Shown: positions 1,600 to 8,378 of the stretch, one piece after another | How positions within the stretch are numbered: the first letter of the stretch is position 1 | How the letters are laid out: each line of letters begins with the position of its first letter | Notes under the pieces: model-generated | What the model was told of the DNA's origin: nothing | Database searches by the model: none | The model's input: only the letters and a program-made list of their open reading frames with translations | DNA from: a virus | Lineage: Duplodnaviria > Heunggongvirae > Uroviricota > Caudoviricetes | Reading direction: 5' to 3' (one strand) | IMG/VR virus record: IMGVR_UViG_2703718799_000022 | Length of the DNA: 8,378 nt | Position numbers and translations under genes: made by a program

Positions 1600-2000
1600 T
1601 TTTTTATTTATCAATTAGTTAGATTGAATGACTCTTGAAATCCATAATTCACAGGTGTTTTTTCCCATCCTGTGGTTTCCTTGGCGTTTTCTAGGTTTTT
1701 TCAGATAGTTGCATTTTTTTAAAAGCATCCTAAGTTCGATCTCAGTGTCTATCTGGGGCCTATTTCTGTCCCATATATGCCCCAAAAAACTCCCCAACAG
1801 ATAAGTAGTTTTTTCATGGATTTACGCGTAAAATCAATAACGGCTGGAAATCATTCAATACTCGCACTATCGAAAAATTTACCAGCCAACCGCAGCACGT
1901 TCTTGCATAAGGTGTGTCTGCGGTTTTTCAACTATTCAGATACATCACTCCCATCACATTCATTCCTCCACATCAAAGGCATATAGGCTATATCACCTTG
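1600..2000. other. Candidate attP region (core not identified)
   Basis: By analogy with lambda (xis then int then attP), the attachment site is expected within a few hundred bp past the integrase stop. The region is AT-rich with no credible ORF. I could not pinpoint a core or arm-type repeats by eye. Confidence 0.3.
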
Positions 2001-2247
2001 ATATTTTTCTTTTTCAGATAAAAACTGTTATCTATGTATACTTTTAAACCCAATCCGTGTAGAGTCTCTGCATAAGATAGTTTGCAGTTGCCGCTTCAGC
2101 TTGCGCCATAAACCGCCTGATTTTTGCTGCCACCTGTTAGCATTCCTGTATACCTGAAACGACAATGTTTATCTACGAACTTTAAGAACACCCAAGATAA
2201 AAATTGTCAACTATATCATATATAACACATTACTAATTCGAGGCTAT

Positions 2248-2361
2248 ATGAACAGCATACTGATAATCACTTCTCTCCTTATCATATTCAGCATTTTTAG
2301 TCATGCCCTAATAAAATTAGGGATTGGCATATCCAATAACCCAGACAAAACCGATGTATAA
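2248..2361 (+). CDS. Candidate 37-aa small hydrophobic peptide ([37 protein letters not shown]), predicted single transmembrane helix with polar C-tail
   Basis: ATG at 2248 preceded by GAGG at 2240-2243 (4-nt spacer). Open frame to TAA at 2359-2361. Not in the supplied ORF track (below its length cutoff). AT-rich, with five rare ATA Ile codons, so chance occurrence is not excluded. Lies 68 bp upstream of and co-directional with the 77-aa ORF. Confidence 0.3.
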
Positions 2362-2429
2362 GTCAACATATCCTGAATCAGACATACAATATCGCAATGA
2401 AAATCAATAATATTTTAAGGAATATCTTC

Positions 2430-2663
2430 ATGAAATCAAAAGACACCCTAAAGTGGTTCCCTGCGCAGCTTCCTGAAGTAAGAATTATCCTAGGGGATGC
2501 TGTAGTGGAAGTAGCAAAACAGGGAAGACCTATCAATACCAGAACATTGCTTGATTACATTGAAGGAAACATAAAGAAAAAATCATGGCTGGATAACAAA
2601 GAATTATTACAAACAGCGATATCAGTTCTTAAAGACAACCAAAATTTAAATGGTAAAATGTAA
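2430..2663 (+). CDS. Hypothetical 77-aa protein of unknown function
   Basis: The track ORF 2397-2663 has no RBS at ATG 2397. The in-frame ATG at 2430 is preceded by AAGGA (2417-2421) with an 8-nt spacer. No family recognised from the sequence (MKSKDTLKWFPAQLPEVRIILGDAVVEVAKQGRPINTRTLLDYIEGNIKKKSWLDNKELLQTAISVLKDNQNLNGKM). Confidence 0.5.
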   Translation: MKSKDTLKWFPAQLPEVRIILGDAVVEVAKQGRPINTRTLLDYIEGNIKKKSWLDNKELLQTAISVLKDNQNLNGKM

Positions 2664-2979
2664 TATAATAAACTTACTTTTTTATCATTTTTCCACTTTA
2701 ACAACATTTTGCTCCACTTTTCCACGACCAAACAACTTGAAATCTGGTTAAAATAACACGCAACACTATTCTTCTTCCTTGAGTCCGCCCGGAACTCGAA
2801 AAACAAACCGAGTTAAAGCCATTTTTCACAAAATCGATTTTGGGTCTCACCAAAATTACGGGGTTGCATACGCATTCGTTTATTTTCGAACGTGTACATA
2901 CAAATATGCACAAAAATAATCAAAATTATTTTCTGAGATGCATTATGATATGAACACCAATTTCGTATAGAGTCTCACT

Positions 2980-3570
2980 ATGTCTCGAATTTTTGCTTAC
3001 TGTCGGATATCAACGCTGGATCAGACCATCGAAAATCAACGCCGGGAAATCGAAAGTGCAGGTTTTAAAATCAAACCTCAGCAAATAATCGAAGAACACA
3101 TTAGCGGCTCAGCAGCAACCAGTGAGCGTCCTGGTTTTAACCGGTTGCTTGCTCGCCTGAAATGTGGTGATCAATTGATTGTGACAAAACTGGATCGCCT
3201 TGGTTGTAATGCAATGGATATCAGGAAAACAGTGGAACAACTGACCGAAACAGGTATCAGAGTGCATTGCTTAGCATTGGGGGGCATTGACCTGACCAGT
3301 CCAACAGGAAAAATGATGATGCACGTAATTTCAGCAGTCGCTGAATTTGAACGAGACCTTTTACTTGAACGCACTCATTCCGGGATAGTAAGAGCCCGCG
3401 GCGCAGGGAAACGTTTTGGTCGACCACCTGTGTTAAATGAAGAACAGAAACAGGTGGTATTCGAACGAATTAAGTCAGGTGTAAGTATAAGTGCCATTGC
3501 CCGGGAATTCAAAACCTCGCGGCAAACCATTTTAAGAGCCAAAGCAAAACTTCAGACACCTGACATATAA
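2980..3570 (+). CDS. pin: Serine DNA invertase of the Pin/Hin/Gin/Cin family
   Basis: 196-aa ORF with the N-terminal resolvase catalytic motif '[11 protein letters not shown]' (active-site Ser) and a C-terminal helix-turn-helix '[17 protein letters not shown]'. Near-identical, as far as I recall, to E. coli prophage Pin proteins (PinR/PinE). Located next to tfa as in Rac and e14. Confidence 0.93.
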
Positions 3571-3667
3571 AAAATAATCTCGGTGTGAGATGCTTTACGT
3601 CTTCCAAGCCCCCTTCCTTGCCGTAAATGGAAAGATACATCTAATTATAGAATTTATATGTTTTACC

Positions 3668-4243
3668 CTACGGCAGTGCTGGCCATTCAATATCCTGTGC
3701 AGTTGACGTATCAACACGGTTCAGCAACACCCGATACTTTTTCCAGGCTTCCAGCAATGAGGTTTCTTCCTCCGTTGCGATTTCCAGATCTACAGCATCC
3801 TGAAGTGGCGCAATATGCTCACTGGCTACCTGCATCAGGCTGTTTTTTGTTTCTTCCGCCTCTCGGATCCGGAACAGTTTTTCTGCTTCTGCATCTTTCA
3901 CCCAGGCTGTGCCGTTCCACTTCTGAAACTCCCCTTCCGGCGATAACCAGGTAACATTTTCCGGTAACGGACCGAGTTCAGAAATAAATAACGCGTCCCC
4001 TGACGCTACGTCATAAACCGTTTTACCCCGATGGTCTTCAACGAGATGCCACGATGCCTTATCACTGTTGAAAACAGCCACAAAGCCAGCAGGAATATCT
4101 GGTGGTGCAATATCGGTACTGTTTGCTGGCAGACCTGTATGAGGCGGAATATATGCGTCACCTTCACCAATAAATTCATTAGTTCCGGCCAGCAGATTAT
4201 AAATTTTTATGGTCCGTGGTTGTTCACTCATTCTGAATGCCAT
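3668..4243 (-). CDS. tfa: Tail fibre assembly protein (chaperone for Stf)
   Basis: 191-aa ORF starting [24 protein letters not shown]..., matching lambda Tfa as I recall it. The start ATG (4243-4241) overlaps the stf stop TAA (4245-4243) in the sequence TAATG. Confidence 0.93.
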
Positions 4244-7002
4244 TATGCAAGCCTCACAATATAGTTAAATGCGATGTTTTTGACGGTGTTTTCCGCGTTA
4301 CCAGCAGCGTTAACGGTGATGGTGTGTCCATGTGAACCAATCGCAACGGAGTGCGTATGAGCACCAATACCGACAGTATGCGCGTGTGCACCTGCAGATG
4401 CTGCTGTGCCGGACAGTGAATGGCTATGATTACCATCTGTACTGGTATTCGCTAACCACCCCGTAGACATACCTACTGAGCCTTGTACACCCCAGGTATT
4501 TTGACCTGAGCTTGTATAACCATATTGATAAGTATCTTTAAAAACACTGGGGTTAAATCGACGGCCATCTCTATGGCTGTGATTACCAGCTGCATTCGTG
4601 CTGCCACTTAAACTATGGGTATGCGCACCAGTGTTATTCGTGGATTTAGTGCCGTAATCAAACGACGATGTGGTTTTCGTCCCCAAATCCGTACTGGATG
4701 CGCTGGCGCTGTGGGTATGCGATTTAATGCCGTCCTGTTCCTGAGACAATACGGCCCGACCACTGGCAGGTTTGCCCTTAATCGTCCAGCCACGCATATC
4801 AGGGATCACGCCTGACGGATAAGCCGCTGCAAGTTTCGGGTATGCAGATTTGTCAAAAGCCTGCCCCTGCATCAGGGCATAGCCAGACGAATAAATATCG
4901 TAAGTATCACCAGATGTATTAACCCAGGCAAAATTTGTAAACCCTGTCAATGTGCGCTGCCATAAAGCACCAGTAATCCCCTTCGGATTACCATTACCTG
5001 CACGTAAAACAAGTTCAGATATACCTGCCTGTTGAGGTGACCCCACGTTAAATCCAGCGCCACCAATCAACGTAATTGAAACAACAGAACTCGCCTGTGG
5101 CATGGTTACCGTTGCTAATTTGAACCAACCAGCACCACCGCTGAATGACATTGTTGTTGAGTTAAGCGTACCAATATCTTTCGGCGTCAGTGTTATATCC
5201 GCTGAAAGCGCCTTACCATTCACCTTACGGGCAGAAGGTACCCGACCATTCGCATTGTCATTAGCTGCTTTCACTGCTTTCGGTGTCGCAGCAAGCGTTT
5301 CAGATGTGCTGTTGGTTGCACTACTGAGCTGGACAATTCCTTTTTGTGCTGTCGTAGCGTCCTGTGCGGTGTATTTCCCGTTAGCCAGGTCATACGCGGC
5401 CTTAACGGCTTTTGGCGTTGCCGCCTGTGACTCGGAAGTGCTGTTAGTCGCACTGCTGAGCTGAACTATCCCTTTCTGTCCTGTCGTTGCATCCTGTGCG
5501 GTGTATTTCCCGTTAGCCAGGTCATACGCGGCCTTAACGGCTTTTGGCGTTGCCGCCTGTGACTCGGAAGTGCTGTTGGTCGCACTGCTGAGCTGTACTC
5601 CCCCCTTTTTCGTCGTGCTCGCATCCTCAAGCGCCACGGCGGATGCAATATCCTCTGCACGTTTTGCCGCTGTCTCAGCGCGCGTTGCTGCGGATTCTGC
5701 CGTACTTTTGCTCTGTGCTGCCGCTGCCGCACTGCCAGCAGCCTCTGTCGCCTTCGTGGATGCCGTCGTGGCGCTGCCCCTCGCTGCTGACGCCTGTCTG
5801 GTCGCCTCATCTTTTGAAGCAGACGCAGATGATGCCGATGACGCCGCCGAACTGGCGGACGATGCGGCAGCCGTTTTTGAGGATTCTGCGCTGGTTTCCG
5901 ACGCTTTCGCGTTCGTTTCGGATGTCTTCGCTGCGGAAGCAGACCTCGCTGCTGCGCTGGCCTGTTCAGTGGCTTCGCCAGCCTTCGTTGTGGCTGTTGA
6001 AGCGGATGATGCGGCGCTTTCTGCCGATTTTCCGGCGGCGGTGGCACTGACTGCTGCCTCCTCTGCCTTAATGGACGCCTCACGGGCCGATGATGCAGCT
6101 GCTGTCTCAGAGTCTGCCGCAGCTGAGGCGCTCTGTTCCGCTGCCGTTTCAGAAGACTTAGCATTCGTCTCGGACGTTTTTGCCGCCTTCACGGAATTTC
6201 CTGCCGCCATTGCCGAGGAGGCTGCACTGCTGGCGCTTGTGGAGGCGTTCGTTTCTGATGATTTTGCCGCCTCTTTGGAGGCCGCCGCATCTCTGGCTGA
6301 AGTGGCGGCTTCTGACGCTTTCGTCGTCGCAGTGGATGCAGAAGTGGCTGCTGATTTTTGTGACGCTGCAGCATTCGTTTCTGACGTTTTCGCGGCACCG
6401 GCACTGGTGGCCGCCGCGCTTTTTGAGGACTCTGCAGCGGCAGCACTTTTTGATGCTTCTGTGGCCTTTGTTGATGCTGTTCCTGCGCTGGAAGACGCTG
6501 ACTGAGCCGACGTCGCGGCCTGCCCGGCTGATGTGCTGGCTGCACGTGCTGAGCCTGCAGCATCAGTCGCATGGGTTGCCGCCTCACGGGCTGATGTGCC
6601 GGCATCGCCGGCTGACTTCTTCGCGGCTGCCGTGTTCTGTGCCACCGCGGACGCGTTACGCGCCACCTCTTCCACCATCAGCTCAAAACGGCGCAGTGCC
6701 TCCGGACGGGCATCATCCTCCGTCATGGCACCGAGAAAATCATTCAGCGTACCGGGTCGGGAATCTTCATACACGGTGATGGTCCCGGCATGTGACGGCG
6801 GGAATCCTTCCACCAACAGAATAACGCTGTACTGACCGTACTCAACGTCCATACTGTAACGCCCGGCTTCATCCGGATTTTCTGAGGCCAGCGTGTTCAC
6901 CACCACCGTGGTGCTGTTACGTTTTGCTTTCAGCTGGATTGTGCAGTTCTGTACCGGTTTTCCTGTGCCGTCTTTCAGTACACCTGAAATCTTTACTGCC
7001 AT
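4243..7002 (-). CDS. stf: Side tail fibre protein (lambda Stf-like), apparently intact
   Basis: Track ORF 4243-7008 begins at a GTG; the ATG two codons in (7002-7000) gives [26 protein letters not shown]..., the lambda Stf N-terminus as I recall it. Long Ala/Ser/Thr-rich shaft, three tandem 44-aa repeats, His-rich HxH motifs near the C-terminus, and the C-terminal '[18 protein letters not shown]' typical of Stf and T4 gp37-type fibres. Confidence 0.93.
5240..5606 (-). repeat. Tandem direct repeat, 132-bp period, about three copies, inside stf
   Basis: 'ctgagctg' recurs at 5324, 5456 and 5588 (spacing exactly 132). Copies 5341-5463 and 5473-5595 are nearly identical at DNA level; the third (lowest-coordinate) copy is more diverged. 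Encodes the 44-aa unit '[44 protein letters not shown]'. Confidence 0.85.
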
Positions 7003-7011
7003 ATTCACCCC

Positions 7012-7040
7012 ACAAAAAAGCCCGCCTGAACCGGCGGGCT
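7012..7040 (-). terminator. Rho-independent terminator downstream of lom, immediately upstream of the stf start
   Basis: Minus-strand sequence agcccgcc-ggttca-ggcgggct forms an 8-bp GC-rich stem with a 6-nt loop, followed by ttttttgtgg. About 10 nt separate the T-tract from the stf ATG. Confidence 0.7.
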
Positions 7041-7066
7041 GTCATAACACTGTGTTACCTGGCTAA

Positions 7067-7666
7067 TCAGAATTTATAACCGACACCCACGATGAAACTG
7101 TTGGTACGCCAGTCACCGCTGCCGGAGCCTTCATAAGCGACGTCAACGGCCACGGATTCGGTCGGGTTAAACTGCACGCCAGCTCCCCACGCCAGAGACG
7201 TGTTGCTGTGGCGACCGTCATCACTTCCGGTCAGCACATCGTGCGTTTTCCCCTTGTTGTCAGTTACGCGGATATAATCTCCGGAGAAAGTCGAAACACG
7301 GCTGTAAGCCATACCCGCCATCGCATACGCGCTGAACCATTCATTCACGCGCACAGACGGCCCCGCCATCACGCTGAACCAGCGGTTACGCACGGAATCT
7401 TCATGCCAGCGGGTATCGCTGTAATGCGTTTTTTGCTCATCTTCAGCGTTGGCATAACTGAATGACGTAATCAGCCCCAGCGTGTCCGTAAACTCATAAC
7501 GGTATTTCACGTTAATCCCGTTCAGATTATCGCTGCCGGGAGCGTTCGTACGGGCATGAAGATACCCTGCGCTCAGTGTGGCCTGCTGCTCAGACGCCCA
7601 TGCAGGCGCACCGGATACGGCCAGACAGATGGCTGCGGACAAAATGGCTGCACAAACTTTACGCAT
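7067..7666 (-). CDS. lom: Outer membrane beta-barrel protein Lom (Ail/Lom/PagC family)
   Basis: 199-aa [29 protein letters not shown]... with a signal peptide and the C-terminal 'FIVGVGYKF' beta-barrel end; matches lambda Lom as I recall it. GAGAGG lies 6 nt upstream of the ATG. Sits between J and stf as in lambda. Confidence 0.95.
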
Positions 7667-7690
7667 AATTACCTCTCGCTTTTCTGCAAT

Positions 7691-7720
7691 AAAAAAGGCG
7701 TCATTCCTGACGCCCTTTAT
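7691..7720 (-). terminator. Rho-independent terminator between J and lom
   Basis: Inverted repeat ggcgtca-ttcc-tgacgcc (7-bp stem, 4-nt loop). On the minus strand it is followed by ttttttattg; on the plus strand by ctttattgg, so it may act in both directions. Confidence 0.7.
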
Positions 7721-7736
7721 TGGGGTTATAAATATT

Positions 7737-8378
7737 TCAACGAATACTGATGCCGGAAGCAGCTTTTTTGGTCACAATCACCGTACAATCGGTGATATTG
7801 CCTGCCCCCTGATTGCCTTTCTGGAAAATCTTAAACTCCAGAGTGACGCTACCACCACCACTAGGCATATCAATAACTGCACTGTAACTACCGGGAATGG
7901 CCCCTTTAGTTTCTCTGGATGCGATTAATACGCCGTTTTTGCGAACTTCAAAACCATAACCCGTGTATCGCGTGCCTCCTGGGTTATTTCCGCTCCCCGG
8001 ATCGTCATACGCTATACCGTTAAAAATAATGGGCGGAATAATAATCTGGCGGTCAAAGTTATGATCATCGCTGATGGTGACTGTAACCGTACCGTTTGGT
8101 GTTTCCGTGTTACCCCACGTACCGACTTTTTTCGGGAAGGCTTTTGATACAGCTTTAACGAAATCCCCTCTGACCTGGGTCGCCTCCAGCATGCCCTTAA
8201 TCGTACAGTTCTGGTTAATCGTGACATTGTTGAGCGTTCCTGAGTTCGCATTCACACTGCCACTGATATCCGCATTTTTAGCGGTCAGCTTTCCGTCTGA
8301 TGTCAGGGAAAATACCGGAGGACTGCCACCGCTGGTAATGGTGGGGGCCGTCAGGCGCTTCAGGAACACGTCGTTCAT
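7737..8378 (-). CDS. J: Tail tip host-specificity protein J, C-terminal ~213 aa only (5' part of the gene lies beyond the window end)
   Basis: Synteny J-lom-stf-tfa as in lambda. The motif 'LTAKNADISGSVNANSGTL.NVTI..NCTI.G' and terminal '...KKAASGISIR' resemble the lambda J C-terminal region as I recall it. The ORF reaches the window edge, so it is partial. Confidence 0.8.
   Translation of the reverse strand: MNDVFLKRLTAPTITSGGSPPVFSLTSDGKLTAKNADISGSVNANSGTLNNVTINQNCTIKGMLEATQVRGDFVKAVSKAFPKKVGTWGNTETPNGTVTVTISDDHNFDRQIIIPPIIFNGIAYDDPGSGNNPGGTRYTGYGFEVRKNGVLIASRETKGAIPGSYSAVIDMPSGGGSVTLEFKIFQKGNQGAGNITDCTVIVTKKAASGISIR

Follow-up and report, generated by a model that had tools for sequence, protein, structure and literature searches.

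Tandem Phage_fiber_2 repeats and their copy number in a lambda-type side tail fibre gene of an Escherichia coli prophage

Repeats in described tail fibre proteins

Duplications between His-box motifs in the tip of phage T4 gp37 are reported to expand host range (Tetart et al. 1996, J Mol Biol). The side tail fibre gene (stf) analysed here resembles the T4 gene in that recombination between short conserved motifs of a fibre gene would duplicate a structural segment in tandem and in frame. The two systems differ in the motif, the unit and the position of the duplication (adhesin tip versus rod/distal junction), and of the two it is T4 for which an effect on host range is reported as demonstrated.

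The Phage_fiber_2 family (Pf2; Pfam PF03406) was first recognised in the Stf protein of phage lambda (PMC3368898). In the Ur-lambda model of 2025, the proximal coiled coil of Stf comprises aa 102-393 and the hinge comprises aa 394-422 (PMC12617516); the single unit of lambda (aa ~358-393) therefore lies directly before the knee. The core of the units described below is nearly identical to aa 358-386 of lambda Stf and to both units of P2 gpH, and aa 113-155 of Mu S match a profile of these units with an E value of 2e-22. Lambda Stf and Mu S contain one unit each and P2 gpH contains two, in contrast to the three units of the allele analysed here, the middle one of which is a recent chimera resembling the first unit. 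In the lambda sequence (J02459), one unit was found in orf-401 and none in orf-314, which bears out the statement in the earlier note that lambda Stf has a single copy of the 25-residue core motif.

Searches of the PDB by sequence and by profile found the Pf2 unit only in the Mu tail fibre S (5yvq, 8ju3 and 9ki1), and in the Mu virion paper only the N-terminus of gp49 was built. An AlphaFold2 monomer model of aa 445-640 of the present protein, calculated from a 45-sequence alignment, had a mean pLDDT of 32 and a pTM of 0.20 and is unusable; its one weak hint is that each unit has a strand at VQL, along with a short helix over an 11-residue stretch.

Length polymorphism has been described for the collagen-like and coiled-coil segments of Stf-like proteins encoded by prophages of EHEC (Ghosh et al. 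2012, PMC3368898). These proteins belong to the same family (PfN ... Pf2 ...), and the length of their repetitive segments differs from allele to allele by complete structural periods, in multiples of either 3 or 7 aa, so that frame and fold are kept. The variable elements there are Gly-X-Y and heptad repeats, whereas the 44-aa Pf2 unit varies in the present case. Full-text literature searches with motif strings (such as a 15-residue string of the unit) found no papers, and searches on tandem repeats or unequal crossing in tail fibres yielded no paper about the copy number of Pf2.

The stf gene and its repeat array

The window, i.e. the whole stretch of 8,378 nt that was analysed (IMG/VR record IMGVR_UViG_2703718799_000022), contains on its minus strand the terminal part of a lambdoid tail operon and then other prophage genes. 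The minus-strand genes comprise the C-terminus of J (7737-8378; Ig_GpJ_C), lom (7067-7666; Ail_Lom), stf (4243-7008) and, directly downstream of stf, the gene tfa (3668-4243), which encodes the tail fibre assembly protein (PF02413 Caudo_TAP, E 3e-44). The order J - lom - stf - tfa on this strand and a PF08400 N-terminus identify the protein as a lambda-type Stf. The plus strand encodes an excisionase (33-284) and an integrase (304-1599), both assigned from open reading frames and Pfam, and a pinQ-type serine invertase/recombinase (2980-3570; Pfam). An AT-rich stretch of the window carries ynfT and ydfK. An excised-phage order of the window was considered and rejected, since positions 1-2000 are contiguous in many O26 chromosomes. 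The O26:H11 strain 11368 of E. coli has a Qin-like prophage that is 99.97% identical to positions 1634-8378, the whole three-unit array included.

The open reading frame of stf encodes 921 aa from a GTG at 7008, and the start of the RefSeq homologue corresponds to the ATG at 7002. The Pfam domains of the protein are the N-terminal PF08400 domain involved in tail attachment (aa 3-136, E 7e-72), three matches to PF03406, the Collar domain PF07484 (aa 707-743) and PF03335. The PF08400 domain is followed by an Ala/Ser-rich rod, the three Pf2 units, a distal beta-rich segment, the Collar domain and a tip that is rich in His-boxes, like the tips of lambda Stf and T4 gp37. The rod, which is rich in Ala, Ser and Thr (aa ~110-463; 5620-6681, minus strand), contains short periodic DNA repeats and abuts the array upstream, and the array is located between this rod and the distal part of the protein. 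Its counterpart in lambda Stf is the segment aa 102-393, modelled as the proximal coiled coil. By analogy with the Ur-lambda model (PMC12617516), this Stf probably forms a trimeric, jointed fibre. Two long plus-strand open reading frames over the array (5102-5464 and 5501-6505) are of the kind commonly seen antisense to genes rich in Ala and GC and were taken for artefacts. An Rfam search of the repeat region found no family.

A repeat search of the window detected a 132-nt direct repeat in three copies in register (5246-5377, 5378-5509 and 5510-5641), and TRF reported a period of 132, 2.2 copies, 92% matches and zero indels (score 511). In codon register, the array occupies 5224-5619 of the minus strand and consists of three in-frame units of 132 nt within stf. 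The repeat search, TRF and the translation agree with the earlier note, which had placed three in-frame 44-aa units in the stf shaft at 5240-5606, within the limits of this array. When the window was shuffled with its dinucleotides preserved (n=100), the longest exact direct repeat was at most 16 nt (mean 12.5), and the triplicate repeat is thus confirmed as real and far above chance expectation.

The three units are all encoded on the minus strand. R1 (5488-5619; aa 464-507) is of the proximal or "first-unit" type, and R3 (5224-5355; aa 552-595) is of the "last-unit" type and continues into the distal module. R2 (5356-5487; aa 508-551, marked by a 12-residue and a 15-residue stretch) is a chimera: its first ~25 nt belong to the middle/last-unit type, and everything after them is identical to R1. 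R1 and R2 are identical at 117 of 132 positions, and R2 and R3 at 82 of 132. The exact tract common to R1 and R2 is 86 nt long (5360-5445 = 5492-5577) and extends to 104 nt with one mismatch, between a distal copy at 5360-5463 and a proximal copy at 5492-5595, and to 108 nt with two. The two copies had been called nearly identical over ~120 bp, a description that overstates the match a little and is in essence correct. The units share a conserved core of 25 residues, and a fixed linker of 17 residues stands between non-terminal units.

Each of the three units is a PF03406 Phage_fiber_2 repeat of a tail fibre protein. The stf product matched the PF03406 HMM in three separate stretches with a total of 176.7 bits (gathering cut-off 22; E 5.6e-53), the best of which, aa 508-548, covers profile positions 1-41 of 42. 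Repeats of this family, ~40 residues long, are found alone or as tandem arrays in tail fibres of phages, and the units here likewise lie in tandem in a tail fibre. In the window, successive units start at intervals of 44 aa, and the interval is the same in 196 pairs of neighbouring units from 240 homologues.

Copy number and unit composition among related alleles

The copy number of the Pf2 unit was compared among related phages and prophages, as the earlier note had proposed, and it varies from one to four units instead of being invariably three. Two units occur in P2 gpH, with the same 17-residue linker as in the window, and also in PhiR42_1 and four other sequenced phages. Among full-length Stf homologues (n=120), 67 have one unit, 48 have two and five have three, and the spacing is always 44 aa. 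P2-type fibres contain up to 4-5 units with 44-aa spacing, and other fibre types contain up to seven Pf2 cores spaced by 56 or 100 aa.

Of 5,426 complete genomes of E. coli, ~1,230 contain the flanks on both sides of the array. Two samples drawn from these at even spacing gave 37 informative rows, in which three units were found in 30, two in four, four in two and one in a single case, a disrupted gene; many of the counted genomes are clonal, so that the rows should not be read as one independent event each. Three units are thus the modal state for this distal module and are not peculiar to the window. Relative to the three-copy span, the spans differed by -264, -132, 0 or +132 nt, i.e. in frame and by exact multiples of 132 nt. 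The copy number was verified in the sequences of FDAARGOS_943, OkiPb01696 and SC477 (two units), 19AR1321 and ZJ3920 (four units), 31B19CPO012 (one unit) and O157 AR-0428 (three units). Alleles with the same flanks and one, two, three or four units, always offset by 132 nt, bear out the proposal that the copy number changes in 44-aa steps without a break of the frame.

Eight alleles were compared unit by unit and base by base, and three types of unit were distinguished across them: first, middle and last, the latter continuing into the distal module. The four-copy alleles of 19AR1321 and ZJ3920 consist of the O157-type three-copy array and one additional unit. This additional unit, the third of the array, combines a 5' part of the last-unit type (48-nt exact tract) with a 3' part of the middle-unit type (93-nt exact tract), and its sequence is exactly what would be expected from in-register unequal exchange between a last and a middle unit. 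The reciprocal kind of fusion is found in the two-copy allele of OkiPb01696, in which R2 has a middle-unit 5' part and a last-unit 3' part, and the single unit of 31B19CPO012 has a first-unit 5' part and a last-unit 3' part. FDAARGOS_943, with two copies and flanks 99.4% identical to those of the window, corresponds to the window minus 132 nt, with five mismatches in 384 nt. Its last unit is 100% identical to R3 of the window, and the R1/R2 identity tract offers 91 equivalent placements for the 132-nt indel.

Whole-unit variants and in-register chimeras were thus found in one-, two- and four-copy alleles, as in arrays that evolve by unequal crossover or slippage, and chimeric units of this kind are the hallmark of slippage or of unequal exchange between homologous sequences. 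These units support the suggestion in the earlier note that the array expands and contracts by recombination or slippage. RecA exchange, annealing by phage Red/RecET and replication slippage would leave products indistinguishable by sequence, and any of these could have supplied the enzyme responsible. The 5' end of R2 in the window agrees with O157-type middle units and departs at ~6 positions from R3 of the same array, which argues for inter-allelic exchange or gene conversion and against simple self-duplication. R2 is best read as the product of inter-allelic exchange, or of gene conversion by R1, acting on a middle unit that already existed.

The array very probably represents three tandem Pf2 structural repeats of a trimeric fibre, the copy number of which was changed by misaligned homologous pairing offset by one unit. 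The units lie where the long Ala/Ser-rich rod gives way to the distal, putative receptor-binding part of Stf. Because the units share a core and a fixed linker, pairing misaligned by one unit would add or remove exactly 132 nt in frame. The tract 5360-5463 / 5492-5595 is the candidate substrate of such in-register exchange. The pairing partner may come from the same array or from another of the several stf alleles present in most E. coli genomes; the number of places per genome that match stf has a median of two and reaches eight. The outcome would be a fibre longer or shorter by one 44-aa module, with a chimeric unit at the crossover, and the array of the window would be one such product that became fixed in the O26:H11 lineage.

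A different account is that the copy number is inherited together with the distal module, with the Pf2 core serving as a linker for swaps, including swaps between lambdoid and P2-like fibres, and with changes in number as a by-product. The last unit is the exact point at which one and the same proximal rod is joined to differing distal modules (in PhiR42_1 and lambda versus the window), P2 gene H has 83% DNA identity to the units, and the 5' end of R2 derives from another allele type. The ~1,230 genomes with the distal flank of the window are, in addition, mostly three-copy, whereas the 120 protein clusters mostly have one or two units, and the junction type AANDNANSRV (the 10 residues after the last unit) occurs mostly with one unit among these clusters. 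However, another 10-residue junction type is found in 40, 46 and five protein clusters with one, two and three units, respectively, and the copy number varies among alleles that have the same distal module and both flanks 95-99% identical (FDAARGOS_943, OkiPb01696, SC477, 19AR1321 and ZJ3920). Inheritance with the distal module is therefore quite improbable as the explanation of copy number, and as a view of how modules are traded it complements, and does not exclude, unequal exchange between units.

Stability of the array and its possible role

Among the best 60 flank matches, 58 keep the three-copy span, including 51 of the 51 with 100% identical flanks; the exceptions are FDAARGOS_943 (-132 nt) and UTAK-15 (+7 nt). 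This bears on whether the differences in copy number, or the three copies as such, arose only in assembly, where a repeat present in several prophages per genome may collapse or expand. Many tail-fibre proteins in databases are "partial" and end inside Pf2 arrays on ~1-kb contigs, which indicates that short-read assemblers break at these arrays, and genomes contain up to eight stf-like places. Such an origin is nevertheless extremely unlikely. The 58 complete genomes with the identical three-copy array come from many laboratories, and the R1/R2 exact tract of 86 nt (104 nt with one mismatch) is shorter than common read lengths. The chimeric units of the variant alleles are coherent and have diagnostic substitutions of their own, and the four-copy structure is common to two unrelated assemblies, 19AR1321 and ZJ3920.

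The retention of three copies in 58 of the best 60 records indicates that changes in copy number seldom occur on a clonal timescale. The presence of a long tract of perfect tandem identity within a host-range gene, together with copy numbers that differ among alleles, would suit a programmed, fast-switching locus of the contingency type, in which fibre length would be heterogeneous within a single lysogen or lysate. This is very improbable here, because repeat number does not differ among the identical-flank records, the unit is 132 nt and not a short simple-sequence repeat, and no dedicated machinery was recognised. The adjacent pin invertase lacks inverted-repeat partner sites around the array: the repeat search of the window found no pair of inverted repeats bracketing the array or the 3' end of stf and tfa, and only 97 nt separate pin and tfa, so that there is no room for an alternative tfa'/stf' segment. 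The features of tail-fibre variation driven by an invertase of the Pin/Gin/Cin type are thus absent from this array, and Pfam searches of the window found no reverse transcriptase or other DGR components. The sequences point to an array that is labile over evolutionary time and neither hypermutable nor fast-switching.

The number of units would be expected to alter the length of the fibre or the geometry of its hinge, and through this it might influence host range. In a more specific proposal, selection acts on the number of Pf2 units as a "spacer/hinge" setting, and the deeply conserved DNA of the core also serves recombination across families, as a linker for the exchange of distal modules between lambdoid and P2-like phages. 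Each unit would then lengthen the fibre by a constant amount directly ahead of its knee, and alleles with one to four units would be tuned to the depth of O-antigen or capsule that the distal module has to cross. This proposal is regarded as unlikely.

The gain or loss of in-frame repeats is expected behaviour of fibre genes, and the importance of the locus is accordingly low. Pf2 arrays are of practical concern as places at which short-read assemblies break or may miscount. The natural series of one to four units on identical flanks indicates that the fibre tolerates insertion and removal of whole units. For the engineering of chimeric Stf proteins in phage-based delivery, the series suggests permissive points for in-register fusion and possible control of fibre reach.

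The repeat family, the gene and the exact array are already known, the latter from more than 50 public O26:H11 genomes. The stf gene of O26:H11 11368 (WP_001448491.1) and those of other O26 genomes contain the same three-unit array. Within the array, the window differs from the 11368 gene by one substitution in R1 (position 5600; a Gly codon instead of Val). The two genes are 99.97% identical outside a deletion of 201 bp (67 aa, in frame) in the distal domain of the window's stf, a segment that is present in every related genome. At the deletion, the window has 2 nt (4890-4891) in place of 203 nt, and the protein junction reads DIY|SSGY. The junction sequence had zero matches in 5,426 complete E. 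coli genomes, IMG/VR contigs and GTDB representative genomes. In flank-only BLAST, the flank-to-flank spans exceeded expectation by 201 nt because of this deletion in the window and not because of the repeats.

Loss and substitution in the stf gene

In the distal domain of the side tail fibre gene stf, at 4889-4892 of the window, 201 bp that are present in all related stf alleles are absent. Comparison of the sequences showed that 203 nt of the Qin-like prophage of E. coli O26:H11 strain 11368 (L008 5741-5943) are replaced by 2 nt in the window. The loss is in frame, removes 67 amino acids (VAIGNYATGVNIQWDY...PIPWPSDTVP) and leaves the junction DIY|SSGY, and no clean microhomology was found at its endpoints. 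Searches with a 60-nt sequence spanning the junction, against 5,426 complete E. coli genomes, IMG/VR and the GTDB representatives, gave no match. The loss could be a genuine deletion private to this sequence, or it could have arisen as an artefact when the source was assembled.

The sole further difference from strain 11368 between 4892 and 8378 is at 5600, a C/A substitution within a C6 run in codon 7 of R1, one of the three 44-aa Pf2 (Phage_fiber_2) repeat units of stf. The window has a Gly codon (GGA) at this position and 11368 a Val codon (GTA), whereas every other allele examined has Ile (ATA).

Pf2 arrays and repeats in the stf rod

Most of the database proteins matching the repeat region (P0121-P0240) are labelled 'partial' and are encoded on contigs of about 1 kb that start or end inside Pf2 arrays, which shows that such arrays are a common break point of short-read assemblies. 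Some of these proteins carry wrong names, such as 'short-chain fatty acid transporter' and 'antitermination protein'. Several other E. coli tail fibre proteins (P0164, P0179-P0182, P0142, P0154 and others) contain 4-7 Pf2 cores, whose spacing is either alternating 56/44 aa or a regular 100 aa; their linker architectures are unlike that of the 44-aa array of the window. Strain UTAK-15 (H156, NZ_CP169018.1; 99.2% identity) exceeds the other three-copy records by 7 nt in the span between the two flanks of the array, which may reflect a small indel between the flanks, possibly a frameshift.

A repeat search of the Ala/Ser-rich rod of stf, which lies upstream of the array, identified families of short, degenerate direct repeats at 5800-6620. 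Many of these repeats are spaced by a multiple of 21 nt (63, 84, 126, 231, 252 or 546 nt), and a 9-nt micro-array is located at 5822-5846. The rod varies in length among Stf homologues, with the first Pf2 unit beginning between aa 313 and 469.

Invertase gene, xis-int junction and small features

A pinQ-type serine invertase gene (Resolvase and HTH_7 domains; 2980-3570, + strand) is separated by 97 nt from the end of the tail fibre assembly gene tfa. O26 11368 shows the same arrangement in its annotated pinQ-tfaQ neighbourhood, and a PinQ/PinR-type recombinase also adjoins tfa in phage PhiR42_1. Neither an alternative tfa'/stf' segment nor inverted crossover sites were found at the invertase gene in the window.

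The xis-int pair (33-284 and 304-1599) borders the prophage on its pin side at about 1634, where identity to O26 11368 ends and that strain has a ydfJ pseudogene. Many other O26 chromosomes have this junction as one contiguous stretch, and some of them carry IS600/IS3 insertions inside it. The arrangement suggests that the ydfJ site holds prophages in tandem or next to each other.

An 88-aa ORF (2397-2663, + strand) had no match in Pfam and contains the cold-shock-like Qin-prophage gene ydfK (2430-2663), which is annotated in O26 11368; ynfT is located at about 2248-2361. The 3' half of tfa includes a full-length match to Rfam IS009 (RF02111) at 3702-3900 on the minus strand, scoring 226.7 bits against a gathering score of 117.
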